This document shows positions 3,437 through 26,781 of a stretch of DNA of 27,311 nt, piece by piece (positions within the stretch are counted from its first letter, which is position 1; every line of letters starts with the position of its first letter). The DNA comes from an uncultured Oscillospiraceae bacterium. Its GTDB lineage: Bacteria; Bacillota; Clostridia; Oscillospirales; Oscillospiraceae. The DNA is taken from NCBI GenBank assembly GCA_964496235.1, contig CAZBYU010000002.1, positions 1-27,311 of the forward strand, in the 5' to 3' direction. Below the pieces are notes generated by a model, which was not told the DNA's origin, made no database searches, and was given only the letters and a program-made list of their open reading frames with translations. A program made the position numbers and the translations under genes.

Positions 3437-3512
3437 TTTTCTACCTCCATAATAAATTGTGCATAATCGGCTCATGCATATTAAAACCAACAGTAAGATT
3501 GATCATATGTCA

Positions 3513-3563
3513 TACATTTTCTTGAAGAAAATGTAGAAAACGCATGCGTTTTCTACTTGTCAA
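3513..3563 (-). promoter_or_regulatory. Perfect -35 (TTGACA) plus two overlapping palindromic operator candidates upstream of the secreted protein
   Basis: TTGACA on the - strand at 3558-3563. GTAGAAAACGCATGCGTTTTCTAC (3533-3556) is a perfect 24-bp palindrome; TACATTTTCTT-G-AAGAAAATGTA spans 3513-3535. The -10 is poor. Confidence 0.55.
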
Positions 3564-3656
3564 TCCAGCTGTCTTTTGCTGACACAATTATAAACTAAAG
3601 TGCTTTATCTCGCAAGATTTTTTATAGTAGAATTCCAGATTTTTATGTGAGAAAGC

Positions 3657-3693
3657 GCGTTATTAGGGCGGCTGAAAGCCGCCCTAATAACGC
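3657..3693. terminator. Perfect 17-bp inverted repeat just downstream of the XRE gene (terminator or REP-like)
   Basis: GCGTTATTAGGGCGGCT-GAA-AGCCGCCCTAATAACGC, 6 nt from the stop at 3700. There is no clean U-tract. Confidence 0.6.
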
Positions 3694-3699
3694 ACCATA

Positions 3700-4149
3700 T
3701 CACTCTCTGTTTGCTTTCCAATAGTTCAGCTTGGGCAACATCGCGCTCATATGGTCGCGTACCTGCTCGCGCGACCATTCCGCGCTCGACATATGCTCAA
3801 CGCAGAAGTCTATGAGCGCGTCCATGTCAGTATAGGTATGCTTGCCGTCGACATAGCACCATTTGCAATACTCCTCGTTGATGCCGCCGTCGGGGTCGCG
3901 GCTCATGAGCGTGTCATCAAGCGGCATGCCACAACACTGGCACACCAGATGACAGGGCGAACCCAAAAGAGTGTTGATGGAGACATCGAAAAGTTTGGAA
4001 AGAAGCTTGAGTGTATCCGTGTTCGGCTGGGTATCTCCGTTTTCCCAGCGGGAAACCGCCTGACGCGTGACGAACAGTTTTTCAGCAAGCTCGTCTTGGG
4101 AAAGTCCGTTTTTCGTGCGAAGCTGATATATGACATCTTTGGTATCCAT
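3700..4149 (-). CDS. XRE-family HTH transcriptional regulator with a C-terminal zinc-ribbon domain
   Basis: Start re-assigned to ATG 4149 (GGAGG RBS), giving 149 aa. HTH: LRTKNGLSQDELAEKLFVTRQAVSRWENG. C-terminal CQCCGMP...YCKWCY. Confidence 0.9.
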   Translation of the reverse strand: MDTKDVIYQLRTKNGLSQDELAEKLFVTRQAVSRWENGDTQPNTDTLKLLSKLFDVSINTLLGSPCHLVCQCCGMPLDDTLMSRDPDGGINEEYCKWCYVDGKHTYTDMDALIDFCVEHMSSAEWSREQVRDHMSAMLPKLNYWKANRE

Positions 4150-4224
4150 ATTATAATTCCTCCATTTAAGAAAGCGATGAACAAACAACGCACTCACAGC
4201 CTGTATCTTTGTTGCGTTAAGGGT

Positions 4225-4268
4225 ATTATACAACGGGCGATACACTATGTAAAGCAACAGGCTGTTGC
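4225..4268 (-). promoter_or_regulatory. Sigma-A promoter of the XRE gene with an adjacent palindromic operator
   Basis: TTTACA (4248-4253), 17 nt, TATAAT (4225-4230). GCAACAG-G-CTGTTGC (4254-4268) abuts the -35. Confidence 0.75.
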
Positions 4269-4389
4269 GCGTAAAAAAGAACGGCTCATCTGCACACGGC
4301 ATAGCCGAGTAGAGGGGAGTTTATGATGTTTTATTAAGAAAATCCGAAGAATGACAGTAGCAAAGCGCAATCGCGCCGCAACATTACCG

Positions 4390-5097
4390 TCAGCAACAGA
4401 AGAAGCGATAGCCGCAGGTAGGACCGAGGCACATATTGAGCGCACACATCGTAAGACAGAGCTTGTCTGTACTCAAGCCGGTGGAATAGTGGGTGGAATA
4501 GTTATCATAGAAGTCTCCCCCGCTTTGAAGCTGTTCCAAAAGGCGGCGGTACTGCTCATTACCCGGCTCTATCTCAACGGCACGTCGAGCGGCCTCGAGC
4601 GCGGCGATTTTGTTGCCCATATACATATTCGCACCGGCGGTGAGATAATACCACTTGCCGTCACGCTCGGCAACAGGGACACCGGACAGGGCGTTCAGAG
4701 CCTCGCGGTACATGCCGTTGCGAATATAGTTTTTCGCGGCGGTATACTCACTGCGTTCGTTTTGACGCGCCGCGCCGGTAGATCCGCCGAAATCGCCCCA
4801 ATCGCTCCAGCCAGACCATGACCCCCATGGGTTATACCCACCGGAGGAATAACCGCCGTAGCCACCGTAGCCGCCCTGCGAGGAATATCCGTATCCCCGG
4901 GGATCGCTCTGCTGAGCTGTGCCGTTTTTAATTTGGTCATAGGCGGCGTTTATTTCGTTCATCTTCTGCGCTGCCGTGGGGTCGTTGGGGTTGAGATCCG
5001 GGTGATATTTCTTCGTCAAGTCCCGATATGCTTTTTTCACCTCGTCGTCCGTCGCGTCGCGCGACACGCCGAGTACCTTATACGGGTCCTGATACAT
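4390..5097 (-). CDS. Class C J-domain (DnaJ-domain) protein with Gly/Tyr/Trp-rich linker, TPR-like helices and Cys-rich C-terminus
   Basis: Start re-assigned to ATG 5097, giving 235 aa. DPYKVLGV...KKYHPD...INAAYD is a J-domain with an intact HPD. TPR-like [18 protein letters not shown]. Tail [23 protein letters not shown]. It lacks the CxxCxGxG repeats of canonical DnaJ. Confidence 0.9.
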
Positions 5098-5938
5098 CTG
5101 TTTTTCCTTCCTTTTCTGCCGCCTTATGCGGGGAAAACTTGCTGTCGAATTGTTGCCATATACCAAGGCAGAGAATGTTCTTCAAAATGTCCGCGTCCTG
5201 GACAAGCGGGAGCTTATCGAACCAATACACGCACTCGCTCATCAGCATCTTCAGTATGCCTCGAAACCGCACCTCATTGTCAAGCCCATAGTAACGGCGA
5301 AACGGATTGTAGCTTTCATGCCGGGTGTCCGCGTCAAGATCCATCACCGCGTCCATGATATACACAGCACGACCGAGCGAGTTGCCGAGGGCGCGAAGCG
5401 TATCGCCCCAGCGATCATCTCTCCACACGAGAAGCTCACCCATCAGTGCGCCGAAGGTTGCCGCGGCGGAGTCGGGGGATTCATCACGCGCTCTTTCCAG
5501 ATCGTCAAGCGCGGCAAGGGATCTGGTCATAGCCCTATGCTGTCGCGGATAAGCATCGCAAAGAGACAAATATGTGCGCCGAAGTGCACGAGCCTCCGCA
5601 AGCGATGCGAGGTTTGCGTCATCGCGCCAATCGTCCATACATTTGAGATAGGCGAGCATGACGTTCATATCCGCGGCGTAATCCGTAGCCGCAGAGGAAA
5701 AAAAGGCATGTGGCTTTTTCGGGTGCGCGATACAACGAAGCTCCCCCGCGCTCTCCTCCGGCTCATAAAGCGAACCCAGAAGAAGCACGAGGAAGGTCAA
5801 ATCATAATTAAGCGTGAGCCGTGAAATCTCTCCGTGGCGTATTTTCAGTGCGCGGCACAGCCCGCAATAACACGCACGATAACGCGCCTGCTGTTCCTCT
5901 GTCAATGCGCCGGGCAATGCGGCGAGATAGCCGAACAT
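5078..5938 (-). CDS. DUF5685-like conserved hypothetical protein
   Basis: 286 aa. MFGY start, YCGLC, LNYD, CxxHP, KxxDDWRD and YxxDAxxDxxxD...YNP motifs match my recollection of DUF5685. Overlaps the J-domain gene by 20 nt. Confidence 0.8.
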
Positions 5939-5939
5939 A

Positions 5940-6341
5940 TCAGGTCTTTCCGAAGAAGGATGTGCCGCATTTACGGCAGACTATTTTAACCTTGCCGCGG
6001 CGGCGGGGAACACGCAGACTCGTCCGACAGCTCGGACATGTGAAGAACTTATAGTCCTTGCGCTGAATCCAACGCTCACGGCGGAGGCGACACCATGCGT
6101 CAAACTTATATTTCAGGCGCATATACTTGCCGTTTTCTTCGCGGCGTTTATACACGTTGCGGGAAAACATGCGAAAATATATAAAACCGAGCAGGACAAT
6201 CGCCAACGGATAGACAAGACCGCTTATGCTCTTAACGAAGCTTGCCAGCAACAGCAAAATAAGATCTACCACCAGCAAAAACATATTCAGCTGGTCATTG
6301 CCGTTTCTTCCGGCCATAAACCGTGCCAAACGCTCTCTCAT
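5940..6341 (-). CDS. Small membrane protein with a C-terminal zinc ribbon
   Basis: 133 aa. Two hydrophobic helices after FMAGRNGNDQL, a basic linker, then CPSC...CRKC. One-nt gap to the next ATG. Confidence 0.85.
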   Translation of the reverse strand: MRERLARFMAGRNGNDQLNMFLLVVDLILLLLASFVKSISGLVYPLAIVLLGFIYFRMFSRNVYKRREENGKYMRLKYKFDAWCRLRRERWIQRKDYKFFTCPSCRTSLRVPRRRGKVKIVCRKCGTSFFGKT

Positions 6342-6373
6342 TTACTCACCTTAATACTGCATTTTTGTATATG

Positions 6374-6409
6374 GTGATTTTATCACAATGATGTTCTAAA
6401 ACATCACAA
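6374..6409 (-). promoter_or_regulatory. Extended -10 and repeated motifs upstream of the J-domain operon
   Basis: TG-A-TAAAAT on the - strand (6377-6385). ATCACAA direct repeat at 6382 and 6403 (21-nt period). Palindrome TGATGTT-N4-AACATCA at 6389-6406. Confidence 0.4.
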
Positions 6410-6472
6410 AATTGTTAATAATCAATACTTTGAAAGGCTCGGTAGCATCAGGCGCATACACGAGGATATGAA

Positions 6473-6503
6473 AGGCAGACGGCTGTTCTTCAGCCGCCCG
6501 CCT
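6473..6503 (-). terminator. Probable terminator downstream of ddl
   Basis: - strand AGGCGGGCGGCUG-AAGAA-CAGCCGUCUGCCU then UUC. Two mismatches become G-U pairs only on the - strand. Confidence 0.6.
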
Positions 6504-6556
6504 GATAATGGTCTGTATTAATATCGCGTTTTGCGCTAAAAAGAGGCAATTAATGC

Positions 6557-7621
6557 TTACAGACTCTTCTTACGCGCGTCGAGGGAGAGGAACACTATCT
6601 TTTCGCAAAGCTCGGCATAGCTCATACCCTCTACGGCGGCGGCACGCGGAATAAGGCTGTTCGGGGTCATGCCGGGGAGGGTGTTGACCTCCAGACACCA
6701 AGCACGTCCCTCCTCGTCCAAGATAAAGTCCGTGCGGGAATAAACCGAGAGACCGAGTGCGCGGTGGAATTTCAACGCCGCTTCGCCCATGAGCGCGTGT
6801 TCCTCCGGGGTGATAGGCGCAGGGCAGAGTTCTCTCGCGCCCTCGTCACCGGACTGATACTTGGCAACATAGTCGAACCTGCCCTCGGGTGGAACGATCT
6901 CGATGGCGGAGAGATAGCGATCGTCGAGGACGGGGACGGTCATCTCACGACCTGTTATCTTGCGCTCGACAACGGCGCGGTCGGAGTATTTCAGCACCTC
7001 GGCAAGACCGGCTCTCAGCTCATCGCGCGTCTCGGCAATGACGACACCGATGGACGAGCCGCCGTTGACCGCCTTAATCACGCAGGGAAGGAAAAGCTCC
7101 TCGGTGAGAGAGGGGATATCGTCAGTAGTATAGGTGATCTCGCGCCACTCGGGAGTCAGAACACCAGCAGACTCCATAATGCGCTTTGCAACCGCCTTGT
7201 CCATTGCCATGGCACTGCCCAAGGGCGCAGAGCCGGTATACGGCACACCCAAGAGGTCAAGAGCGGACTGGATTTTTCCGTCCTCCCCGTCCGCGCCGTG
7301 CAGACCGAGGAAAACGCAGTCGGCAAGACGGCAAAGCTCCAATACGTTTTTGCCGAGGCGGCTGGGGCTTTTATCGCGGCGGGCGGCTTTCACGGCGGCA
7401 ATATCAGGCGCGGTGCGACCGACGGCGACATCGCCGCAGAAGCCGTCCGGCACATCGAAAACAGACTCCAAAGAGCCGTCATAATCCTCCAAGCCCATGA
7501 ACATGTCGACAAACACGGCCTTGTGACCCAATGAGCGCAAAGCGCGGCAGACCGATGTCCCCGTGACTAGAGCGACATGACGCTCAGAGCTTACGCCGCC
7601 ACCCAAAACAACTATTTTCAT
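6557..7621 (-). CDS. ddl: D-alanine--D-alanine ligase
   Basis: 354 aa. VLGGGVSSER, LHGADGEDG, GSAMAMDK, GGSSIG, omega loop FDYVAKY, EVNTLPGMT...SLIP. AAAGGA RBS. Confidence 0.95.
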   Translation of the reverse strand: MKIVVLGGGVSSERHVALVTGTSVCRALRSLGHKAVFVDMFMGLEDYDGSLESVFDVPDGFCGDVAVGRTAPDIAAVKAARRDKSPSRLGKNVLELCRLADCVFLGLHGADGEDGKIQSALDLLGVPYTGSAPLGSAMAMDKAVAKRIMESAGVLTPEWREITYTTDDIPSLTEELFLPCVIKAVNGGSSIGVVIAETRDELRAGLAEVLKYSDRAVVERKITGREMTVPVLDDRYLSAIEIVPPEGRFDYVAKYQSGDEGARELCPAPITPEEHALMGEAALKFHRALGLSVYSRTDFILDEEGRAWCLEVNTLPGMTPNSLIPRAAAVEGMSYAELCEKIVFLSLDARKKSL

Positions 7622-7652
7622 TACAGAGTATCCTTTCGGTTTTATACTGCTT

Positions 7653-7676
7653 ACGCTCCCGCCGAGGCGGGAGCGT
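7653..7676. other. GC-rich hairpin between the M20 peptidase gene and ddl
   Basis: ACGCTCCCGC-CGAG-GCGGGAGCGT. No U-tract in the transcribed (-) direction. Confidence 0.5.
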
Positions 7677-7713
7677 TTAGACTATATACGATTATACCTT
7701 GCTGTATGCCTTA

Positions 7714-9150
7714 TCAGCACTGCTTCATGACGCGAATGAAGAACTCAACCGCGCGTTCGATGACTTCAAGACGAATATGCTCGTCATTGCCGTGAATGGT
7801 GCTACGCTCCTCACCGGTGAGGTCCATGGCAGAGAAGCGGTAAACGCGGTCGCTTATCTCGCCGTAATGGCGGCTGTCGGAACACTGAACCATGAGGTAC
7901 GGGGAGACGACACAGCCCTTCCACGTGCCTGCGACGGCGTTTGCAACGCGCTCCCAGCCGATGCAATCGGTGCGGGAGATGGGGCTGGGGTTCATGCACT
8001 GACCGACGGAGAGCTTGATTTTGGGGTCATTGACGACAGAGGCAATATACTCCTTCGCGCTCTCAACGGTATCCTCGGGATTGAGGCGGAGGTTGGAGAC
8101 GATAGAGGCAGACGGCGGAATGACGTTGGGGGCCTTGCTACCGCTCATCTGGGTAAATGCAACGGTGGTACGCATAAGAGCATTAAGCTCACCGCCGGAC
8201 TTTTTGCAGATGGCATCAAGCACACCGCTAAAGCACCAGAGGTTGGAGAAGATGACGCGGTAAAGGAAGGTGGAACGGCGACCGAGCGTGTCGAACATCT
8301 CCGCCACGGGCTTGGTAAGATGCGCCTTGAACGGATGCTTTTCGACCTTGGTGCAAGCCTCAGACAGGCGGACAATGGGCGAATTGGGCTTGGGTGCGGA
8401 GGCGTGACCACCGGCGGAGGAAACGGAATACTCGAGGTTGAGCATACCCTTTTCCGCAATGCCGATGAGACCGCACGGCTCATGCACACCGGGGAAGATA
8501 TTGTCCACAACGCCGCCGCCCTCGTCGACGACCATTTCAAGCTCTATTCCCTGCTCCTTAAAGTAGTTGACAATATGACGCGCACCCTTGCCGTTTATCT
8601 CCTCGCCGCCGGAGAACGCGAAGTAGATATCGTTTTCGGGGGTGAAGCCCTGCTTTATGAGGTTCTCTGCGCCGGAGAGTATGCCGTTGAACGTGACCTT
8701 GGTGTCAAGAGTTCCGCGACCCCACATTATGCCGTCGCTGACCTCAGCCTCAAAGGCAGGGTGAGTCCAGTTTTCTTCCTCGACAGGCACAACATCATAG
8801 TGCGCCATGAGGACGGAGGGCTTGCCGTCACCCTTGCTACCCTTCCAGTGGAAAAGGAGACCTCTGTCTTCAAAGCGAGTGAGAGGGCAGGTCTTTATCA
8901 CGTTCGGGAAAAGCTCGGGAAGCTTGCCGATGAGCTTTTCAAACTCGGCATCGTCTTCAAGTGAGTGGTCATAATACGAGACGGTGCGGCATTTTATAAG
9001 CTCGGCGAGAGAGTTGACTGCAGCATCGCGGTCAAACTCAACAGGCTCAAACTCCTTTTTGCCGGTGTCCTTGGGCGTGAACATCGCCGCGCGAACGAGA
9101 ATAACGGCAAGAAACGCAACGATTGCCGCAAGAATTATCCAGCCTATCAT
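7714..9150 (-). CDS. M20-family metallopeptidase/amidohydrolase (carboxypeptidase-S/PM20D1-like) with an N-terminal membrane anchor
   Basis: 478 aa. AHYDVVP, GRGTLDTK, GGEE, VDEGG and IHGNDE metal-ligand motifs. Hydrophobic N-terminus MIGWIILAAIVAFLAVILVRAAMF. Confidence 0.9.
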   Translation of the reverse strand: MIGWIILAAIVAFLAVILVRAAMFTPKDTGKKEFEPVEFDRDAAVNSLAELIKCRTVSYYDHSLEDDAEFEKLIGKLPELFPNVIKTCPLTRFEDRGLLFHWKGSKGDGKPSVLMAHYDVVPVEEENWTHPAFEAEVSDGIMWGRGTLDTKVTFNGILSGAENLIKQGFTPENDIYFAFSGGEEINGKGARHIVNYFKEQGIELEMVVDEGGGVVDNIFPGVHEPCGLIGIAEKGMLNLEYSVSSAGGHASAPKPNSPIVRLSEACTKVEKHPFKAHLTKPVAEMFDTLGRRSTFLYRVIFSNLWCFSGVLDAICKKSGGELNALMRTTVAFTQMSGSKAPNVIPPSASIVSNLRLNPEDTVESAKEYIASVVNDPKIKLSVGQCMNPSPISRTDCIGWERVANAVAGTWKGCVVSPYLMVQCSDSRHYGEISDRVYRFSAMDLTGEERSTIHGNDEHIRLEVIERAVEFFIRVMKQC

Positions 9151-9191
9151 TATTTGTTTTCCTCCTTAGATTTTGCCTGATTTCGACTCAA

Positions 9192-9860
9192 TCAGTCGAG
9201 AACATGCTTTTTATAAAGAATTCTGGAGACACCGATGGTGAAGAGAACGCCGATGGGAACCATGATGCCGACAGTAGACGCGTTGAGTGCGGGTACGAAG
9301 ATGAAAAGCACCAGCATGAGGATAACAGGAGCAACGGCGATTTTCCAGTTCTTCGAGACAAACACGACGCCGAGTCCGCCGAAGAGTGCGGGAAGGATCT
9401 GTGCAAAGGCGGGGGCAAGCACAGGCGCGTCGAGAATCGGGGCAAGCGGCGTGATGAGGATAACACCGAGGATTATTATAAGCGTGGTGACGATGCTGGA
9501 AACCGCGATCGCGACAGTGGAGACGACCTCGCCCTCCTCGGAACGGATGCTGACATCCGCCTGGTCAAGCGCGTTGAGCGCGACGGGAAGCTTGAGGTTG
9601 GAGATATTGCCGGTGACAAAGCTGAGATATGAGCCGCCCGCGCCGAGCATGGGGACATAGGTGAAGGTCTCGACAATGCCGACTGCCCAGTACATGGGGG
9701 CGGTGGCGATGAAGCCCATCAAAAAGCCGTGCCAATCGGGGGTGGCGTTAAAGATTATGCCGACAAGCGCGGGGAACATCATAAGCACGACAACCATGCT
9801 CAGATTCCAAATGCGCCCGGCCTTATGTACAGAATGGATATAGGACGATTCGTTTTTCAT
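9192..9860 (-). CDS. Multi-pass membrane protein, partner of the DUF5058-like protein
   Basis: 222 aa, several hydrophobic helices, conserved-looking YLSFVTGNISNLKLP and EEGEVVSTVA segments. AGGAGGAGG RBS. Confidence 0.8.
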   Translation of the reverse strand: MKNESSYIHSVHKAGRIWNLSMVVVLMMFPALVGIIFNATPDWHGFLMGFIATAPMYWAVGIVETFTYVPMLGAGGSYLSFVTGNISNLKLPVALNALDQADVSIRSEEGEVVSTVAIAVSSIVTTLIIILGVILITPLAPILDAPVLAPAFAQILPALFGGLGVVFVSKNWKIAVAPVILMLVLFIFVPALNASTVGIMVPIGVLFTIGVSRILYKKHVLD

Positions 9861-9880
9861 TTCCGTTACCTCCTCCTATT

Positions 9881-10618
9881 TTAAGAAAGCCATGCGGTGA
9901 TGGGGATCGCGCTCGCCATGCCGATGATAAGACTTGCGGGGAGTGCATAGTCGCTGACCCAACGCCAGTTGGTCTTTTTCACAAGCACGCCCGCCACGCA
10001 CATAACAAGTGCGGACACGAACATGACCAGCGGCGGGATAAGACCGGAAAGGTTGCCGGAGAAGACAGAGCCGAAATCACAGAAAACATAGCCGAGAAAG
10101 GCAGAGATCATACCGGTGAACATAGAGGCAGAGAAAATCTCCGTCCACTTATGGTCACGGTTTTCCATGCTGATCATGCCCTTTTGCAGCTTTTCGGCAA
10201 CGACGGGAACAAGCCAGATGCCGATCATAATGCTGAGTGTCATGACCCATGCGATAGTGACATACTGCTGTGCGGTGAGGGAGGAAACCTGACCGAAGAC
10301 AAGCCCCATCGCGCTCTCCGCGTTCGACGCGGCAATGGTTTCATAAGAAAGCGAGCCGACGACGCTGAGTCTCAACCAAGGCAGAGGCACACCGAGGTCT
10401 TTTGCGAGAGTGATAACGCTGATGACGATGGCCACGGCAGGTGCAATGGTGAATATTGCCGCCGTGCGGGCAATGCGCTTTAGCTTTGCGCGTTCCATGC
10501 CGATGGCAAGACCGCGCCGCCACGCCTTGACGAGGAAAAACACCGACTGTGCAAGCACAGCGGCGATTATCACGCCGACGATGACGAAAAGAATGGGGCT
10601 GTTGACATTGAAAGTCAT
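9881..10618 (-). CDS. DUF5058-like multi-pass membrane protein
   Basis: 245 aa. LGVPLPWLRLSVVGSLSYE motif (my recollection of DUF5058) and about six hydrophobic segments. 20-nt gap to the partner gene. Confidence 0.8.
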   Translation of the reverse strand: MTFNVNSPILFVIVGVIIAAVLAQSVFFLVKAWRRGLAIGMERAKLKRIARTAAIFTIAPAVAIVISVITLAKDLGVPLPWLRLSVVGSLSYETIAASNAESAMGLVFGQVSSLTAQQYVTIAWVMTLSIMIGIWLVPVVAEKLQKGMISMENRDHKWTEIFSASMFTGMISAFLGYVFCDFGSVFSGNLSGLIPPLVMFVSALVMCVAGVLVKKTNWRWVSDYALPASLIIGMASAIPITAWLS

Positions 10619-18291: not shown

Positions 18292-18320
18292 CTGACACAT
18301 TGTTAATTATATGATATACT
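18292..18320 (+). promoter_or_regulatory. Sigma-A promoter of the Fe-S flavoprotein-hypA unit
   Basis: CTGACA (18292-18297), 17 nt, TATACT (18315-18320), with an extended TG. Confidence 0.75.
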
Positions 18321-18401: not shown

Positions 18402-21083
18402 ATGGCACAGCTAAGACCCAAGATAGTCAAGCTCGCCAAGGTAATAGGCGGTGCTTCCGGACTGATGAACAAAATCGACGAGAACGCCCCGGAGTATTAC
18501 AGCCTTGTCAACATCGTATCCGACGACGAGGCGGACATTGCCATAGCCGCCGGGCTTCGCAAGGAACGCACGGCAGGGTATCTCGCGGAGAAGGTCGGAA
18601 AGAGCGTGGAGGAGATTCAGGGCGCACTCGACAACCTTGTATATTACGGCATTTTCCGCCGCACCTACAGCAAGGAGCTGGGCGAGGACATATATTTCAT
18701 GCAGATTTTCGCCCCCGGAATACTCGAAATGATGGTGAACAAAAAAGAGCTTATGGACGCACACCCGGAGGTCGGACGCGCGTTCGAGGAATACACGAGA
18801 ATTCGCATGCAGTCGATGGGTCCTTTGCTTCCGGACGGATATGGGCTTATGCGCGTTATCCCCGTGGAAAGCGCGATCAAGGATATCCCCGGCGTAACCG
18901 ATGACGAGAGACTGAGCTACTATCTCGACAAATATGACACATTCTCCGTTTCTTCCTGCTCCTGCCGCGCCTCGCGCACCTCTATCGGCGACGGTTGCGG
19001 GCATCTGGACGAGGATATGTGCGTTCAGATGGGCAAGGGCGCGGAACACTACATACGCTCCGGCAGAGCGCGTGAAATAACGCGCGAGGAGGCTATGGAG
19101 ATAATAAAACGCGCCGAGGAAAACGGTCTCATGCACGACATTCCCAACATAGAGGGTGCGGGAGACAGCTCGGCAATATGCAACTGTTGCTCTTGTGCAT
19201 GCTTCGGTCTGAGAGCGGGGCTTATGTTCGGCGCACGTGACGCAATACGCTCAAACTTTGTGGCGGAAATAGACGAGGCAAAGTGCGTGGCATGTGCCCA
19301 GTGCGTGGAGATATGCCCAGGAAACGCATTGAAGCTCGGTCAAAAGCTTTGCACCACGGACGATACGAGCGCACCGGAGTACGTAAAGATTACGGACACG
19401 TTCAACTTTGCCAAGGCTCGCAACGAAGATTACCGCGAAAACCGCGAGGACGTTCTTCCCTCCGGCACTGCGCCGTGCAAGAGTGCGTGTCCCGCACATA
19501 TCCCGGTGCAGGGCTATCTCAAGCTTGCCGCACAGGGGCGTTACACCGAGGCACTTGAGCTTATAAAGAAAGAAAACCCCTTCCCCGCCGTATGCGGGCG
19601 CATATGCAACAAACGCTGTGAGGCGGAGTGTACGCGCGGCAGTGTGGACGAGGCGGTTGCAATCGACGAGGTCAAGCGGTTCATTGCAGACCACGACATG
19701 AGCGAAGCAACTCGCTATATCCCCAAGATGGTCAACCAGATAGGCAGACCCTACAGCGAAAAAATCGCCATAGTGGGTGCAGGTCCCGCCGGCATGAGCT
19801 GTGCATACTACCTTGCGAACAAGGGCTACAGCGTGACGGTGTTCGACCGCAACAGCGTACCCGGCGGCATGCTGACACTGGGTATTCCGTCGTTCAGGCT
19901 GGAAAAGGACGTGCTGAACGCGGAGATAGACATTCTGCGCGAGATGGGCGTGGAATTCAAGTGCGGCGTTGAGGTCGGCAAGGACATCACACTCGCCGAG
20001 CTTCGCAAGCAGGGCTACAAGGGCTTCTACCTCGCCATCGGCGCGCAAAAGTCCGCAAAGCTGAGCATTCCGGGCGAGGAGCTGAACGGCGTGTTCGGCG
20101 GGGTCGACTTCCTGCGCGAGGTGAACCTCGGCAACAAGCCCGCTATAGGCAAGAAGTGCGCCGTTATAGGCGGCGGCAACGTGGCTATGGACGTGTGCCG
20201 CAGTGCGGTGCGCCTCGGCGCGGAGGAAACTTACATACTCTACCGCCGTTCGGAGGAGGAGATGCCCGCAGACAAGGACGAGGTGAACGAGGCGAAGCAC
20301 GAGGGTGTCAGCTTTAAGTTCCTCGCCGCCCCCGTGGAGATAATGGGTGCGGACGGCAAGGTCACCGCAATAAAGGCAGAGCTTATGGAGCTTGGAGAAG
20401 CGGACGAAAAGGGTCGTCGCAAGCCCGTAGGCACAGGCAAATTCGAGACTATAGAAGTCGATTCCGTTATTGCCGCCGTAGGTCAGGTAGTCGACTGGGG
20501 TTCAATCGACGTAGGCGAGCTGAAAACCACCTCCCGCGGCACGGCAGAGGCAGACGCACTGACCTATCAGACGGCGCAGTGCGACATATTCGTCGGCGGA
20601 GACTGCTACACCGGTCCCAAGTTTGCAATTGACGCTATCGCCGCAGGCAAGGAAGCCGCGATAAGTCTGCACCGCTACGTCCACCCCGGTCAGACTCTGA
20701 CTGCCGGACGCGACAGACGCGTATACCACGCGCTCGACAAAAACCAAGTACTGCTTGACGTGGCAAGCTTCGACAACGACCACCGTCAGCTTGCCGGTTA
20801 CAGCGAGACGAAAGCCAAGACCTTCTCCGACGCACGTGTGACCTTCACTGAGGAGCAGGTCAGGCGCGAATGCGCCCGTTGCCTCGGTTGCGGCGCGACG
20901 AAGGTGGACAACTATCTGTGTATAGGTTGCGGTCTTTGTACGACGAAGTGCAAGTTCGACGCAATACACCTGAAGAAGGTGCGCGATTGGCATGCAACCA
21001 CGTTTGAGACCATGCCGATAAAGGTTGCGGAAAACCTTGTCAAGCGTACAGGAGGCATCGTGAAAAAGGCGGTCAGCAAGTAA
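18402..21083 (+). CDS. Large Fe-S flavoprotein: GltD/NfnB/DPD-like NAD(P)H oxidoreductase core with extra N-terminal Cys-rich and ferredoxin domains
   Basis: 893 aa. FAD motif IVGAGPAG, NAD(P) motif VIGGGNVAMD followed by YRR, DPD-type cluster motifs PCKSACP and CGRICNKRCEAEC, ferredoxin motifs CVACAQCVEICP and CIGCGLCTTKC, and an N-terminal CSC...CGH...C...ICNCCSCAC set. AAGGAG RBS. Confidence 0.9.
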   Translation: MAQLRPKIVKLAKVIGGASGLMNKIDENAPEYYSLVNIVSDDEADIAIAAGLRKERTAGYLAEKVGKSVEEIQGALDNLVYYGIFRRTYSKELGEDIYFMQIFAPGILEMMVNKKELMDAHPEVGRAFEEYTRIRMQSMGPLLPDGYGLMRVIPVESAIKDIPGVTDDERLSYYLDKYDTFSVSSCSCRASRTSIGDGCGHLDEDMCVQMGKGAEHYIRSGRAREITREEAMEIIKRAEENGLMHDIPNIEGAGDSSAICNCCSCACFGLRAGLMFGARDAIRSNFVAEIDEAKCVACAQCVEICPGNALKLGQKLCTTDDTSAPEYVKITDTFNFAKARNEDYRENREDVLPSGTAPCKSACPAHIPVQGYLKLAAQGRYTEALELIKKENPFPAVCGRICNKRCEAECTRGSVDEAVAIDEVKRFIADHDMSEATRYIPKMVNQIGRPYSEKIAIVGAGPAGMSCAYYLANKGYSVTVFDRNSVPGGMLTLGIPSFRLEKDVLNAEIDILREMGVEFKCGVEVGKDITLAELRKQGYKGFYLAIGAQKSAKLSIPGEELNGVFGGVDFLREVNLGNKPAIGKKCAVIGGGNVAMDVCRSAVRLGAEETYILYRRSEEEMPADKDEVNEAKHEGVSFKFLAAPVEIMGADGKVTAIKAELMELGEADEKGRRKPVGTGKFETIEVDSVIAAVGQVVDWGSIDVGELKTTSRGTAEADALTYQTAQCDIFVGGDCYTGPKFAIDAIAAGKEAAISLHRYVHPGQTLTAGRDRRVYHALDKNQVLLDVASFDNDHRQLAGYSETKAKTFSDARVTFTEEQVRRECARCLGCGATKVDNYLCIGCGLCTTKCKFDAIHLKKVRDWHATTFETMPIKVAENLVKRTGGIVKKAVSK

Positions 21084-21424
21084 TGCATGAGCTTGGTATA
21101 TGCGACGCGCTTTTGAAGCTTGTCGGCAACATTGCCCGAGACGAACAGCTTGAGGGCGTGAAAAGCGTGACGATTGAGGTAGGGTCACTGTCCGGAGTCG
21201 TACCCGCCTACCTCAAAGACTGCTGGGTCGCAGTATCCGACGGCACAGCATACGAAAAGACCGAGCTTTTCGTGGAAAGCGTACCCGGCGAGGCGCAATG
21301 CCTTGACTGCGGAGAGCGTTTTACCGCGGATTTGAACAGGCTTATCTGCCCCAAGTGCAACGGAACAAAGCTCACGCCCCTATCGGGGCGTGAGCTGACG
21401 CTGAAAGAAATAGAAGCAATATAA
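21083..21424 (+). CDS. hypA: HypA/HybF-family nickel metallochaperone
   Basis: 113 aa. N-terminal MHE Ni motif, VGSLSGVVP, two Zn knuckles CLDC and CPKC, SGREL. TAATG overlap with the flavoprotein. Confidence 0.93.
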   Translation: MHELGICDALLKLVGNIARDEQLEGVKSVTIEVGSLSGVVPAYLKDCWVAVSDGTAYEKTELFVESVPGEAQCLDCGERFTADLNRLICPKCNGTKLTPLSGRELTLKEIEAI

Positions 21425-21433
21425 CACCTGACA

Positions 21434-21467
21434 AAAATCAGCCGTCTCATTCGAGACGGCTGATTTT
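21434..21467. terminator. Bidirectional terminator between hypA and argS
   Basis: AAAATCAGCCGTCTC-ATTC-GAGACGGCTGATTTT, a perfect 15-bp stem. Confidence 0.9.
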
Positions 21468-21493: not shown

Positions 21494-23158
21494 TCACATG
21501 GACTCTGGTGCGGAAACACCGAGGAGATCAAGGGCATTCTTGAGGGTAATTTCAAGTGCCATTACAAGACCGACGCGCTGGTTGGTAAGCTCGGGGTCAT
21601 CGGGGTTGTTGACACGGGCGACATTGTAATAGCTGTGGTAGAGCTTGACGAGGGAGATGATGTACTCATTGACGATGTTGGGCTTGCGGGTCTTTGCGGC
21701 CTTGGCAACAAGACCGGGGAACTCGCTCATCATCTTCATAAGGAGAAGCTCCTTTTCGTCGGTAAGGCGGTCATAGTTGTCGACCGGCTTGAAGGCGGGG
21801 ATATCGGGGTTGCGGAGTATGGAACACATACGAGAGTGTGCATACTGGGCATAGTAAACGGGGTTGTTGTTGTCCTTGGCAACAGCCTGCTTAACGTCGA
21901 AGTCCATCTGAGAGGAGATATCCTTGGAACTGAAGAACCAGTGTGCCGCGTCAACGCCAACCTCCTCGGTAAGCTCGCGAATGGTGATGGCGTTGCCGGT
22001 GCGCTTGCTCATCTTGACCTCAACACCGTTTTCGACCATACGAACCATCTGGATAAGCTCGACAGAGAGGGTATCCTTCGGGCAACCGAGAGCGGAGAGA
22101 GCCGCTTGCATACGCGTGACGTAGGAGTGGTGATCCGCACCCCAGAGATTGACGAGCTTGGTATAGCCGCGCTCGAGCTTATAGACATGGTTTGCGATAT
22201 CGGGGGTAAGGTAAGAGAGTGTTCCGTCGCTCTTGCGAAGAACACGGTCTTTGTCGTCGCCGTAGTCGGTACTCTTGAACCAGAGTGCGCCGTCCTTTTC
22301 GTAGAGAAGCCCCTTCTCGTCCATGAGCTTGAGGCAGTCATTTATACGCTGTCTGTCGTTCTCATAAAAGAAGGTCTCATGCACCCAAGATTCGATGTTG
22401 ACACCGAAATTCTTCAGGTCACGGTCGATCTTATCAAGCTCGAGCTTTTTGCCGGTCTCCATGAAGTAGTGAAGACGCTCGTCACCCTCGACGGAGAGCC
22501 ACTTGTCACCGTCTTTCTCGGCAATAAGGTCGGCAATACCCTTAACGTCCTCGGCATGGTAGCCGTCTTCGGGCAGGGGGTACTCAGCGGCACGACCGAA
22601 ATGCTCATAATATCGCGCGATGAGGGATTCGCCGAGCTTGACGATCTGGTTGCCGGCATCGTTGACGTAGAACTCTCGGAGAACGTCATACCCGCTCTTT
22701 TCAAGCAGACGGCATATGCATTCGCCCCAGACGGCGTTACGGGCATGACCGCAGTGCAGATCACCCGTGGGGTTTGCGGAAACCCACTCGACAAGAATAC
22801 GCAGACCGTTGCCGGAATCGTTCTTGCCGTAATCGCCCTTGGCTTCGAGAACCTTGTTGATAACGCCGGAGAGTGCGTCACCGCGCAGACGGAAGTTTAT
22901 AAAGCCGGGCTTTGCCACGGTGATGGACTCAGCCTCGGGCAAAGACTCACGCAGCTTTGCGGCAAGCTCCTCGCCGATCTGCATGGGGGGCATATGCAAC
23001 TCACGGGCAAGGCGCATGGCCGTGCTGGATGCATAGTCACCCATCTTCGAGTCACGGGGAACTTCGACAAGCAGAGTGTCCTCGTTGCCCTCTATGCCAT
23101 AACAATCAAGAAGCGCGTCACTCAGCGCGTCATATATTTTCTTCTCAAAATCGCTCAT
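21494..23158 (-). CDS. argS: Arginine--tRNA ligase
   Basis: 554 aa. Class I HIGH-type motif SANPTGDLHCGHAR, GADHHSY, KMSKRTG, YYAQYAHSR. ATGA overlap with argR. Confidence 0.96.
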   Translation of the reverse strand: MSDFEKKIYDALSDALLDCYGIEGNEDTLLVEVPRDSKMGDYASSTAMRLARELHMPPMQIGEELAAKLRESLPEAESITVAKPGFINFRLRGDALSGVINKVLEAKGDYGKNDSGNGLRILVEWVSANPTGDLHCGHARNAVWGECICRLLEKSGYDVLREFYVNDAGNQIVKLGESLIARYYEHFGRAAEYPLPEDGYHAEDVKGIADLIAEKDGDKWLSVEGDERLHYFMETGKKLELDKIDRDLKNFGVNIESWVHETFFYENDRQRINDCLKLMDEKGLLYEKDGALWFKSTDYGDDKDRVLRKSDGTLSYLTPDIANHVYKLERGYTKLVNLWGADHHSYVTRMQAALSALGCPKDTLSVELIQMVRMVENGVEVKMSKRTGNAITIRELTEEVGVDAAHWFFSSKDISSQMDFDVKQAVAKDNNNPVYYAQYAHSRMCSILRNPDIPAFKPVDNYDRLTDEKELLLMKMMSEFPGLVAKAAKTRKPNIVNEYIISLVKLYHSYYNVARVNNPDDPELTNQRVGLVMALEITLKNALDLLGVSAPESM

Positions 23159-23661
23159 TTCCCATTTGCCTCCATACTGATGGTGTTATAGATATTCTCA
23201 GATGCACATAAATCCTTCAACTGGCGGCAAAAATCGCTCGCCGCATCATTGTCCGACATTATGAGCAAAATTGTGTCGGCACCTGCAAGAGAGCCGACGA
23301 AGCCCGGGTGTTCGAGCTTGTCGATATACGCACAGACGGCGTTCGCCATGCTGATTATCGTTTTGACAACGATAATGTTCTGCACCGCCGTAAACGACGG
23401 AGCCGACATCTGCGCGATATACTGAAGATGTTCAACTCCTTTTCCGTCCTCACTCATGCCGGGATCGGCCACATACATGGGAAGCCCATCGGGACCGATC
23501 TGCTTTACAAGACCGAGGGCGCGGATATCTCGCGACACTGTGGACTGAGTACATTCAACTCCCCGTGCCGCAAGCAGATCCATCAAATCTTTTTGAGTTC
23601 TCACCTCGCGGGTAGATAGTAGCTCCAAAATCAACTGCTGTCGTCGCGTGTTCACAGACAT
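23155..23661 (-). CDS. argR: Arginine repressor (ArgR/AhrC family) with an atypical C-terminal motif
   Basis: 168 aa. RRQQLILELL, TQKDL, TQSTVSRDI winged helix. C-terminal IIVVKT...GSLAGADTILLI. Confidence 0.92.
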   Translation of the reverse strand: MSVNTRRQQLILELLSTREVRTQKDLMDLLAARGVECTQSTVSRDIRALGLVKQIGPDGLPMYVADPGMSEDGKGVEHLQYIAQMSAPSFTAVQNIIVVKTIISMANAVCAYIDKLEHPGFVGSLAGADTILLIMSDNDAASDFCRQLKDLCASENIYNTISMEANGK

Positions 23662-23727
23662 CCCCCCTTATCCCCCTTACAACGAAATTCATGACGGGTA
23701 TCCCATTCAATATCCGTCAGTTTATTC

Positions 23728-23736
23728 ATTATAACA
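23728..23736 (-). promoter_or_regulatory. Extended -10 promoter of argR-argS
   Basis: TG-T-TATAAT on the - strand, about 65 nt upstream of the argR ATG. The -35 is poor. Confidence 0.6.
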
Positions 23737-23818
23737 TGCCGCGTTGAAAAAAGCTATACTAATTTAACGCACATTTTGACACATTCCTTTACTTTTGGAC
23801 GCGAATTTCTTGTATATT

Positions 23819-23879
23819 CTTGCACATATATGCAAACGCGCCGAAAAACGCGAAAATCCCGGCGGCATAAACATGCATT
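23819..23879. promoter_or_regulatory. Two ARG-box-like palindromes
   Basis: TGCAC-ATAT-ATGCA (23821-23834) and GGCAT-AAAC-ATGCA (23864-23877) match the Firmicute ARG-box core TGMAT-N4-ATKCA with one mismatch each. Confidence 0.6.
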
Positions 23880-23904
23880 TTGCCACCGGGGATAATACAC
23901 AAAG

Positions 23905-24085
23905 TCATTGTTCGTCGCTTTGGGTATCCTCTTTGGGGATACTCGCGGAGTTATGCGAGCCTTTTGGGAGGCAGACGTTATTGCGGAATAGCGTGGGCGA
24001 CATGCCTTTGAACTTGGAAAAGTTTAACTGTCGCCGACTCGATAACAGCGGATAGATTATCCTGAATACTAGCTGCTTTATTCAC
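23905..24085 (-). pseudogene. Possible degraded small gene with an AraC C-terminus-like remnant
   Basis: GAGGTG, 7 nt, GTG opens a 35-aa ORF (24085-23978). A shifted frame reads NFSKFKGMSPTLFRNN..., resembling the AraC-family F-x-K-x-F-K-K-x-x-G-x-S-P-x-x-F-R end. Confidence 0.3.
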
Positions 24086-24166
24086 AAAGCATCACCTCAA
24101 GACTGTTCTTGTGTAATTCTTTGCTTTGGAGATTTCACAAGGATTGCGTCAAATCCTCACAACGTA

Positions 24167-24207
24167 GGAAAGACCGGCCGTATTTTCGCGGATACGACCG
24201 GCTTTCC
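24167..24207 (-). terminator. Probable terminator of the arc operon
   Basis: - strand GGAAAGCCGGUCGUAU-CCGCGAAA-AUACGGCCGGUCUUUCC, with a G-U pair on the - strand and a UCUUUCCU tail. Confidence 0.6.
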
Positions 24208-24327
24208 AGATACGTTTAATTCTGGCGAACGGCAGGCGAACCACGTCCGCCTAATGGAGTGATATGTAATGCATAAATGCAATACAGCTTATTCGCTCCG
24301 ACGGTCGAGAATTCTACTGCTATTTTA

Positions 24328-25779
24328 TCAGCTAAGGACGAGCATCGTAGCTGTGAGAATTACGCCGACGACAACCGCGAGGATAGCAAGGAGCTTGCCG
24401 GCGAACTTCAGCCAAGTCTCATAGGGAACACGAGCCAGGGCAAGACCACCCATGATGAAGCCGCAGGTTGGAGTGAAGAGATTGACAAAACCGTTGGCGG
24501 CAACGTTTATCATGATGGAGGTCTCCGCAGACCAACCGAGACCGGCAACTATCGGGGAAACGATAGGAGCGGAGAGGCTGGCAAGACCGGAGGATGAGGG
24601 AACGAGGAAGCTCAGACCGATGTGCAGCAGGTAGTCAAGCACGCCGAAGATAGCGGCAGGCAGACCGGAGGCAGACAGCGCGGTGACGGAAGCCTCGACA
24701 AGCCAAGTGCCGAGACCGGTGGTGTTCATGATGACGGTGGTGGCACGGGCAAGGGCGATAACGAGGTTGACTGAGATCATATCGCCAAAGCCGGCAACAA
24801 CGCACTTCATTATCTGGCTCTTGTCTTCAAGACCGACAAAGCCGATGATGATGCCCATGATGAGGAACCAAGTGGCGGCATCGTCAAACCACCAGTCACC
24901 GAGGCAGTTGCCGGTGAGGAAGGAGCTGAAGCCGAGGGCGTTGTAAACGGTCTCGGTGAGGCTACCCCAAGGAATGAAGCCGAGGATCATAATGACAAAG
25001 GACGCACCGAAGATCCACAAAACCGCCTTCTGACGACCGGTGAGCTTGACATCGTCGGCAATCTCACCGGAGCCGTAAGCCTTGCGGCATTCCTCAAGCT
25101 GTTCGGCAGTGAGAATGGAGCCTTTGTTGCTCTTGACGCTCTTTGCATAGTGGGTGACGAAGAGCGCGGCAATGAGATAAGAAACAAGCCAAAGGATAAT
25201 GCCTTCGACGTAGACAATACCCGTGTTCATCTCAACACCGACATCTGCCGCGGCGGCAACAGCCGCGCCGGTTGCAAATGGGTTGATAGTAGAGCCGAGA
25301 ACGCCGGTGCCTGCGCCGAGCAGAACGGTGGCCGCGCCAACCAGCGGGTCAAAGCCGGCGGCAAGCATGGTGGTAGCAAGAAGGATATAGAAGCCGACGG
25401 TTTCCTCACCCATGCCGTAGGTCGTGCCGCCGATGGAGAACACGAACATCAGTATCCAGATGAGGGCGATTTCTTTGCCGTGAAGCTTCTTGACAAGCAC
25501 CTGAACACCGGTCTCTAGAGCACCGGTAGCGGTGACGATAGCCAAGAACGCGCCGAGGCAGAACACGAAGCCGATAACATCGCCCGCGTTATGCCAGCCG
25601 TTGATGGGAGACATGAGAATGTCGCTGAGAGAAGCACCGACAACTGCGGCTTCCTGACCGGTGTCGGGGTCGGTATAGGTCTGACCGGCGGCAAACCAAG
25701 TCACGGCGGATACGACGAGAAGGATAGCTATGAGAATCGCAAAAGTACTGACTGAACGTCTTTTTTTCGTTCCTGCCAT
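24328..25779 (-). CDS. YfcC-family basic amino acid (arginine/ornithine) antiporter
   Basis: 483 aa, polytopic. GGTTYGMGEET, GSTINPFATG, PSSSGLA, TPTCG motifs. Lies downstream of carbamate kinase. Confidence 0.88.
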   Translation of the reverse strand: MAGTKKRRSVSTFAILIAILLVVSAVTWFAAGQTYTDPDTGQEAAVVGASLSDILMSPINGWHNAGDVIGFVFCLGAFLAIVTATGALETGVQVLVKKLHGKEIALIWILMFVFSIGGTTYGMGEETVGFYILLATTMLAAGFDPLVGAATVLLGAGTGVLGSTINPFATGAAVAAAADVGVEMNTGIVYVEGIILWLVSYLIAALFVTHYAKSVKSNKGSILTAEQLEECRKAYGSGEIADDVKLTGRQKAVLWIFGASFVIMILGFIPWGSLTETVYNALGFSSFLTGNCLGDWWFDDAATWFLIMGIIIGFVGLEDKSQIMKCVVAGFGDMISVNLVIALARATTVIMNTTGLGTWLVEASVTALSASGLPAAIFGVLDYLLHIGLSFLVPSSSGLASLSAPIVSPIVAGLGWSAETSIMINVAANGFVNLFTPTCGFIMGGLALARVPYETWLKFAGKLLAILAVVVGVILTATMLVLS

Positions 25780-25810
25780 TAGTAGTTTCTCCTTTACTCT
25801 TTTTTATTGG

Positions 25811-25838
25811 GGAAGAACCGAGCTTCATCGGTTCTTCC
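25811..25838. other. Intra-operon hairpin between arcC and the antiporter gene
   Basis: GGAAGAACCGA-GCTTCA-TCGGTTCTTCC. On the transcribed strand it is followed by CCAATAAAAAA, not a U-tract. Confidence 0.6.
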
Positions 25839-25848
25839 TTATTCACAA

Positions 25849-26781
25849 TTACTTTTCGATGACCGTGCCGGTCTTGCCCTCGAGAGCCTCGGCGGCTCTG
25901 GCAAGGGAGGTAATGAGCGCGATGCCGGTGCCACTCTTGACGAACTCCATGCAGGATTCAACCTTGGGAAGCATGCTACCGGGTGCGAACTGACCCTCTG
26001 CAATGTACTTATCTGCCTCGGCGAGAGTCATGGAGGGAAGCTCCTTCTGGTCGGGCTTATTGAAGTTTACGCAGACACGGTCAACCGCCGTGAGGATGAT
26101 AAGCTGGTCGGCCTTGACATCACGAGCAAGGAGTGCGCTTGCGCGATCCTTGTCGATGACGGCGGCAACGCCATTAAGACCGTTCTCGGTCTCGACGACC
26201 GGGATTCCGCCGCCGCCGACGGTGATGACAATGTCACCGGCAGAGACAAGCTGTTCGACAACATCAAGCTCGACAATGCGCTTGGGGATCGGGGAGGGAA
26301 CGACACGGCGATAGCCGCGACCTGCGTCCTCAACGAACACGAAGCCCTTTTCGGCCGCAATCGCGTCTGCCTCTTCCCTTGTGTAGAAGCTACCGACGGG
26401 CTTGGTGGGGTGTTCAAAGCCGGGGTCGTTCTTATCAACGACGACCTGCGTGACAACAGTGGCACAGGGCTTGTTGATGCCGCGAGACTTCATCTCTTCC
26501 TGAATGGTCTGCTGGAGATGATAGCCGATATAGCCCTGGGTCATCGCACCGCACTCGGGGAAGGGCATATACGGCGTGTTGCCGCCCTTATTTGCCGAGA
26601 ACTCCAACGCGAGGTTTATCATGCCGACCTGAGGACCGTTACCGTGTCCGATGACCAGCTCATAGCCCGCCTCAACGAGGTCTACGAGGGACTTTGCGGT
26701 TTCCTTGACAAGCTTTAACTGCTCCTCGGGGGTCTTGCCGAGAGCATTGCCTCCGAGCGCTACTACTATTCTCTTACCCAT
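25849..26781 (-). CDS. arcC: Carbamate kinase
   Basis: 310 aa. IVVALGGNAL, HGNGPQVG, KPVGSFY, GRGYRRVVPSP, GGGGIPV, AVIDKD, GSMLPKV. Confidence 0.97.
   Translation of the reverse strand: MGKRIVVALGGNALGKTPEEQLKLVKETAKSLVDLVEAGYELVIGHGNGPQVGMINLALEFSANKGGNTPYMPFPECGAMTQGYIGYHLQQTIQEEMKSRGINKPCATVVTQVVVDKNDPGFEHPTKPVGSFYTREEADAIAAEKGFVFVEDAGRGYRRVVPSPIPKRIVELDVVEQLVSAGDIVITVGGGGIPVVETENGLNGVAAVIDKDRASALLARDVKADQLIILTAVDRVCVNFNKPDQKELPSMTLAEADKYIAEGQFAPGSMLPKVESCMEFVKSGTGIALITSLARAAEALEGKTGTVIEK

Follow-up and report, generated by a model that had tools for sequence, protein, structure and literature searches.

We analysed a two-gene operon in a 27,311-nucleotide stretch of DNA from an uncultured Oscillospiraceae bacterium (GenBank assembly GCA_964496235.1, contig CAZBYU010000002.1, positions 1 to 27,311 of the forward strand; hereafter the window), in which the gene of a large iron-sulfur (Fe-S) flavoenzyme is followed immediately by hypA. 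Judged by published hallmarks, compared by description with IsrA, the putative isoprene reductase of Acetobacterium wieringae, the enzyme is an IsrA-like 'clade 9' oxidoreductase. With a probability that we put at about 0.6, its HypA would be a client-specific nickel chaperone which, helped in trans by a shared HypB, matures a six-cysteine catalytic site fed by a chain from NAD(P)H through FAD to [4Fe-4S] clusters. The likely client or partner of this HypA is the flavoenzyme rather than a hydrogenase or urease, because the adjacency of the two genes is kept across paralogues, genera and phyla, the HypA and enzyme trees are congruent, hypB joins 21 of 80 related loci, and three isolates carry the module with no detected hydrogenase large subunit or HypD. 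The two genes are:

18402-21083, plus strand: isrA-like enzyme gene; open reading frame (ORF) with translation, 893 amino acids (aa)
21083-21424, plus strand: hypA; ORF of 113 aa, translationally coupled to the enzyme gene

At their junction the enzyme gene ends in AAG TAA and hypA (ATG CAT GAG) begins at the last A of the stop codon, a 1-nt TAATG overlap.

The 893-aa enzyme gives Pfam matches to Pyr_redox_2 (106 bits), to Fer4_20 (74 bits) and to Fer4 motifs, and its FAD/NAD(P)H domain holds GAGPAG and GGGNVAMD motifs. The N-terminal residues, about 330 of them, match no family in Pfam or NCBIfam. From the N-terminus to the C-terminus, the protein can be divided as follows:

18402-18830, plus strand: winged-helix-like subdomain, residues ~1-143, in an AlphaFold2 (AF2) model with a predicted local distance difference test score (pLDDT) of 85-97 in this part
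18834-19271, plus strand: six-cysteine subdomain, residues ~145-290, with C186, C188, C207, C260, C262 and C267 and two CxC motifs; proposed Ni/Fe-S catalytic site
19266-19352, plus strand: ferredoxin-type [4Fe-4S] motif C295xxC298xxC301xxxC305P (plus C317); Pfam Fer4 at residues 289-311, cysteines invariant in 42 sequences
19464-20648, plus strand: GltD/NfnB-like core, with a Fer4_20 two-cluster domain (residues 355-435, PF14691, 74 bits) and an FAD/NAD(P)H domain (residues 454-749, PF07992, 106 bits)
20880-20951, plus strand: C-terminal ferredoxin-type motif C827xxC830 ... C840xxC843xxC846xxxC850; Pfam Fer4_9 at residues 840-863, cysteines invariant in three paralogues

Because every NCBIfam score falls under its family cut-off (PRK12771, 473.6 against 516; gltA, 332.8 against 471.75; gltD_gamma, 311.4 against 482.95; YgfK, 357.5 against 835.3), the enzyme is not an equivalog of GltD, NfnB or YgfK. 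It shares with NfnB, with GltD (the glutamate synthase small subunit) and with YgfK/AegA-type flavoproteins the Fer4_20 two-cluster domain and the nested FAD/NAD(P)H domains. Unlike them, it has an additional 330-aa N-terminal domain and a C-terminal ferredoxin motif, and no GltB or NfnA partner gene lies near it.

In 42 diverse homologues of the enzyme, residues C186, C188, R189, C207, E239, H245, C260, N261, C262 and C267 are invariant, as is the ferredoxin motif next to them. In an AF2 model covering the first 345 residues (pLDDT 82), a winged-helix-like part precedes an alpha/beta cysteine-rich part. As a whole, this model matches only winged-helix regulators, with VIA Z reaching 7.3 and Foldseek E no better than 0.03, and the modelled winged-helix resemblance is a weak match to a common fold. 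Modelled alone, the six-cysteine subdomain found no match among solved folds (VIA best Z 2.8, Foldseek best E 1.2); the model has a pLDDT of 73.5 (core 80-96) and is in part of low confidence, so that the lack of a match is no proof of a new fold. A profile search of the PDB with the same subdomain returned matches solely through the ferredoxin motif. Complex prediction of the enzyme N-terminal domain with HypA scored 0.00 in two runs made without controls, and is used here neither for nor against binding.

The second gene product belongs to the HypA family. It matches Pfam HypA (PF01155) with 106.2 bits against a cut-off of 28.9 over residues 1-111 of 113, and a profile built from such HypAs finds the HypA structures of H. 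pylori and T. kodakarensis at E ~1e-15. The protein keeps M1-H2-E3, C73xxC76 and C89xxC92, with no variation at these residues (M1, H2, E3, C73, C76, C89 and C92) among 34 divergent HypAs; throughout the wider set examined, M/L-H-E and both CxxC pairs are invariant as well. The Pfam domains and the invariance of the motifs in the 34 HypAs thus bear out the earlier identification of a multi-Fe-S flavoenzyme paired with a HypA that retains its MHE motif and both zinc knuckles. In length, in the MHE motif and in the two CxxC pairs of the zinc site, the protein equals the HypA/HybF nickel metallochaperones of [NiFe]-hydrogenase and of H. pylori urease (PF01155; PDB 6G81, 2KDX, 3A43). It differs from them in adjoining a flavoenzyme gene instead of a hydrogenase, and it is 33% identical to the hydrogenase-linked HypA of its own genus.

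A scan of species-representative genomes recovered at least 542 relatives of the enzyme, the closest among the matches being from uncultured Oscillospiraceae of human gut, goat and rumen samples. Gene neighbourhoods were counted in the best 80 of these at least 542 related loci. In 71 of the 80, the next gene downstream on the same strand is a HypA ORF; the loci concerned span Oscillospiraceae, Lachnospiraceae, Peptostreptococcaceae, Spirochaetota, Chloroflexota and others. hypB is adjacent in 21 of the 80, mostly outside Oscillospiraceae and usually directly upstream. Of the 61 enzyme/hypA junctions for which distances were taken, 23 are overlaps (-8 or -1 nt), and gaps of at most 22 nt make up most of the others. 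The coupling that the preliminary description had read from a single locus is thus conserved; hypA accompanies most of the flavoprotein genes in these loci and hypB a minority. Each of five clades delimited on the HypA tree is recovered as monophyletic in the enzyme tree, with 100% support. By this comparison the module has been duplicated and inherited as a unit; the pairing of enzyme and HypA is not due to chance. Modules of the order hypB-enzyme-hypA also occur in the isolate genomes of Terrisporobacter mayombei DSM 6539 (labelled as a complete genome), Metaclostridioides mangenotii N8 and Kineothrix alysoides, and neither a PF00374 large subunit nor HypD was found in these three. Two other module-bearing genomes carry both.

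The source genome itself holds several copies of the module. It is a 1.82-Mb metagenome-assembled genome (MAG) in 440 contigs, estimated to be 75% complete, and contains three complete isrA-like and hypA pairs (in the window, on contig C2, and on contigs C55 and C69) and a fourth hypA (C266). The copies outside the window are:

C55 4377-7393, minus strand: second isrA-like and hypA bicistron, enzyme gene then hypA directly
C69 2545-5629, plus strand: third isrA-like and hypA bicistron, enzyme gene then hypA directly
C266 36-377, plus strand: fourth hypA, beginning 36 nt from the contig start

The C55 and C69 enzymes are 55% and 45% identical to the window enzyme, and their HypAs are 35-36% identical to the window HypA. 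The C266 hypA falls in a clade, supported at 100%, of HypAs that all follow such enzymes, and on account of this place in the tree it marks a fourth module whose enzyme gene is unassembled. We considered whether the C266 gene could be the hydrogenase-linked copy and rejected this, given its 23% identity to that copy and its position in the enzyme-linked clade. In 24 other genomes of the same genus we found 58 full-length enzyme copies, 42 of them with HypA downstream, at one to six module copies per genome. These genomes hold 74 HypA genes, of which 42 are enzyme-linked and 20 stand beside a hydrogenase. A search of 16 genomes belonging to other families in the same order yielded no enzyme copies.

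The preliminary description had spoken of a lone HypA with no hydrogenase, urease or hypB. For the window this stands, since Pfam and NCBIfam recover none of these genes there. For the genome it does not: a hypB fragment, cut by the end of contig C121, scores 162 bits against TIGR00073, above the cut-off. The CH...C metal motif is preserved in this fragment, which shows 96% identity to a stand-alone hypB of 223 aa in a 99%-complete congener, so the HypA is not alone but has a hypB in trans. In the source genome, where incompleteness means that a negative is no proof of absence, no [NiFe] large subunit, HypD, urease alpha subunit or carbon monoxide dehydrogenase (CODH)/prismane gene was found. 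Its relatives do carry a [NiFe]-hydrogenase: 21 of the 24 other genus genomes, including the two closest, have a short (~360 aa) group-4 [NiFe] large subunit, and the genus normally has this hydrogenase together with hypFDE and a different hypA. In G015, a 99%-complete genome of the genus, the locus is laid out as follows:

G015:C36:27000-39500, ~3422-10552 in that stretch: hypF, hypD, hypE, a Complex1_30kDa-like subunit, a 360-aa group-4 [NiFe] large subunit, hypA and MnhE (Mrp-type)

By its gene content, this locus is assigned to an Mbh/Mrp-type hydrogenase with a hypA of its own. A tblastn search with the genes of the locus gave no match in the source genome. The absence of hydrogenase and hypFDE from the MAG is probably an assembly gap and not a true absence, and it is unsafe to claim 'no hydrogenase' on the strength of one window or an incomplete MAG. 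In the genus, the hydrogenase-linked HypA is 23-33% identical to the four HypAs of the source genome and forms a long-branch outlier in the tree; the hydrogenase has its own HypA whether or not the source genome carries it. The same genome search recovered two LarA-like (Lar_N) genes, at C111 184-765 and C44 1039-1674, which by their sequence similarity show other putative nickel-dependent enzymes in the organism. LarA-type enzymes obtain their nickel through Lar maturation proteins of their own, not through HypA.

The family to which the window enzyme is assigned was described from IsrA (VUZ27132.1), an oxidoreductase of 901 aa that isoprene induces in Acetobacterium wieringae (ISORED-2 / strain Y) and a putative isoprene reductase (Kronen et al. 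2023, mSystems, PMC10134865). IsrA has NAD(P)H and FAD sites, four canonical [4Fe-4S] clusters and a six-cysteine site with two CxC motifs, Cys180/182 and Cys254/256, at which Kronen et al. proposed nickel to be bound (PMC10134865). Its gene heads a five-gene operon, isrA-hypA1-hypB-ferredoxin-hypA2; IsrA, HypA and HypB are co-induced by isoprene, and the A. wieringae genome is without [NiFe]-hydrogenase and hypCDEF (PMC10134865). Among 988 'clade 9' homologues, HypA is found near 73% (mean distance 1.05 genes) and HypB near 56% (PMC10134865). In Pelotomaculum schinkii, isoprene is reported to induce hypA 373-fold and hypB 585-fold (2026 preprint, bioRxiv 10.64898/2026.02.25.708027).

The window protein agrees with every published clade 9 hallmark that we compared, except for a neighbouring hypB. 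Like clade 9 proteins it is about 900 aa long, with a GltD/NfnB-like core at roughly residues 300-800. The N-terminal ~270-330 aa lack a database domain and carry two CxC motifs within a set of six cysteines (the published 'cluster V'), and the window CxC motifs correspond to Cys180/182 and Cys254/256 of IsrA. Two extra [4Fe-4S] motifs of ferredoxin type, one around residue 290 and one close to the C-terminus, bring the canonical [4Fe-4S] motifs to four in all, and hypA follows immediately, here with the TAATG overlap. The family occurs mainly in strict anaerobes of Firmicutes and other phyla, and its nickel use is a proposal. The window operon differs from isr in having two genes, with hypB elsewhere in the genome; as hypB is frequent but not universal near clade 9 genes, its absence from the neighbourhood does not bar membership. 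It differs further in its gut and rumen habitat, so that isoprene is not implied as the substrate, and in a source genome with at least four paralogous modules. No Acetobacterium locus is among the best 80 of the at least 542 relatives. A profile search of 1.84 billion protein representatives returned 278 clusters at E 1e-30 or better, which hold both fused forms (~900 aa) and stand-alone forms (~360 aa). Many proteins of about 350-370 aa consist of the IsrA-type N-terminal cysteine-rich domain and the ferredoxin motif without the flavoprotein core, a stand-alone form similar to the 'ferredoxin' of 350 aa encoded in the isr operon; none was found in the source genome.

The preliminary description had put forward the flavoprotein as a new client of HypA. 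The client role gains support from the conserved adjacency and the congruent trees, and the novelty does not hold: the HypA/HypB link and the nickel hypothesis for this family were already published in 2023 (PMC10134865). New here are the four or more co-diverging modules of a single small genome, the single, highly conserved stand-alone hypB, the separate hydrogenase-linked hypA in the genus, and the six-cysteine subdomain without a match to solved folds. The value of the window is confirmatory: in a small Oscillospiraceae genome, one HypB serves several co-diverging enzyme-HypA modules that have been kept.

Under the nickel-chaperone reading, electrons would enter from NAD(P)H at the GltD/NfnB-like FAD domain, as domain homology suggests, and would then run along the four canonical [4Fe-4S] clusters to the conserved six-cysteine site in the N-terminal subdomain. 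There the substrate would be reduced, by analogy at an unactivated or conjugated C=C bond. The co-translated HypA would, on genomic grounds, be a nickel metallochaperone specific to this client, and with the single stand-alone HypB GTPase of the genome acting in trans it could load nickel into or beside the six-cysteine site during maturation.

Several observations weigh against this reading. hypB lies outside the operon, and nine of the 80 loci are without a detectable hypA, several of them being cut by contig ends. Neither of the nickel importers CbiM and NicO was found in the incomplete source genome. The genus owns a [NiFe]-hydrogenase, so these HypAs might serve hydrogenase maturation. 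Because the window HypA scores 78.2 bits against TIGR00100, under the equivalog cut-off of 88.1 for hydrogenase HypA, it is placed by profile score in a divergent HypA subfamily and is not an equivalog of the hydrogenase chaperone. The literature yielded no biochemical test of nickel in any IsrA-family member; looking for biochemical follow-up brought up the 2023 paper and two preprints of 2026, and nothing else.

The alternative that survives best, although we consider it unlikely, is that HypA and HypB deliver another metal (zinc, iron or cobalt) or help to build an unusual Fe-S cluster at the six-cysteine site. To our knowledge, no role of HypA or HypB has been documented other than with nickel enzymes, which counts against it. 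Sequence cannot reveal metal specificity, and the finding of no nickel importer in the source genome fits this alternative too, as does the all-cysteine site, which is as much like Fe-S or double-cubane sites as like nickel sites (PMC10134865). On the other hand, the M-H-E motif and the CH...C motif of HypB are nickel ligands in every characterised HypA/HypB pair (PMC10134865).

It seems improbable to us that HypA is a permanent structural or redox subunit, its zinc ribbon stabilising or capping the N-terminal domain with no metal delivery. Such a subunit would agree with the strict one-to-one pairing, in which each paralogue has its own co-diverging HypA, with the translational coupling, which suggests equimolar synthesis, and with the absence of hypB from this operon and from most Oscillospiraceae loci. 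However, a purely structural role does not require the Met-His-Glu nickel motif that is invariant in the 34 divergent HypAs, and the client-specific HypA paralogues of E. coli (HypA for Hyd-3, HybF for Hyd-1/2) remain chaperones. The linkage of hypB, the metal-delivery GTPase, in 21 of 80 loci and in 56% of published neighbourhoods (PMC10134865) also speaks against a subunit without metal delivery. Repurposing of HypA as an electron-transfer subunit, as the preliminary description had suggested, finds no support here.

It is very improbable that the window HypA merely serves the organism's [NiFe]-hydrogenase and stands beside the flavoenzyme incidentally: group-4 [NiFe]-hydrogenase with hypFDE is present in 21 of the 24 other genus genomes and may be unassembled in a 75%-complete MAG, but the hydrogenase locus has its own hypA, a long-branch outlier only 23-33% identical to the source HypAs, the adjacency to the flavoenzyme is kept in 71 of 80 loci and in three isolates without a detected hydrogenase large subunit or HypD, and the HypA and enzyme trees are congruent.

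The nickel-chaperone reading can be extended to the family as a whole. IsrA-type enzymes might form a new class of nickel enzymes, with a Ni-(Fe-S) cofactor in a six-cysteine domain without a solved structural relative, a private co-evolving HypA and a shared HypB; in this genus the module, radiated to up to six copies per genome, would supply reductases that depend on nickel and act on different unsaturated compounds from the diet or the host. We hold this extension at even odds. If nickel use were proven, the family would count as a new nickel enzyme and, for HypA/HypB, as a third class of clients after [NiFe]-hydrogenase and urease. The family is abundant in gut and rumen anaerobes and, were nickel use true, could drive the reduction of unsaturated dietary compounds.

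Some genes around the modules may point to substrates derived from esters or lipids. Beside two of the four modules stand genes for alpha/beta-hydrolases (Pfam Hydrolase_4, lipase/esterase-like), at L010:195-1154 (plus strand) and L011:564-1523 (plus strand), and a gene for a GntR/FCD regulator lies 3' of the C69 hypA. An oleate hydratase beside the A. woodii homologue was noted by Kronen et al. (PMC10134865).

The window operon is delimited by two further features:

18292-18320, plus strand: promoter-like site CTGACA-17-TATACT with an extended -10 (TG upstream); consensus scan, 10/12 matches
21434-21467, no strand assigned: 15-bp hairpin terminator; terminator scan and direct sequence reading

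All the elements of the closed bicistron outlined before, namely a promoter-like site, the TAATG overlap and a hairpin 9 nt 3' of hypA, are present, with the qualification that the hairpin is probably shared. The promoter-like site is a consensus match only and lies ~80 nt 5' of the enzyme start codon. When the upstream regions of orthologues were compared, nothing was kept except the ribosome-binding site and the start codon; a small palindrome 3' of the -10 element, considered as an operator, was rejected as it is not kept in these regions. No Rfam family was found in the window or in the bicistron leader, even at E up to 1. The hairpin begins 9 nt 3' of the hypA stop codon and is followed by a T-run, with A-runs upstream and T-runs downstream. 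Since A/T runs stand on both sides and the hairpin faces the convergent argS (21494-23158, minus strand), we read it as bidirectional: probably a terminator common to hypA and argS, not private to the bicistron.

Upstream of the bicistron, the divergent gene encodes a YfcE-type phosphodiesterase (Pfam/NCBIfam). On the other side, the minus strand from 21494 to 26781 carries the following genes:

21494-23158, minus strand: argS
23155-23661, minus strand: argR, with a 4-nt overlap with argS
24328-25779, minus strand: DcuC/YfcC-type putative basic amino acid antiporter
25849-26781, minus strand: carbamate kinase gene arcC

This argS-argR-antiporter-arcC stretch looks like part of an arginine deiminase-type catabolic cluster beside an arginyl-tRNA ligase gene.

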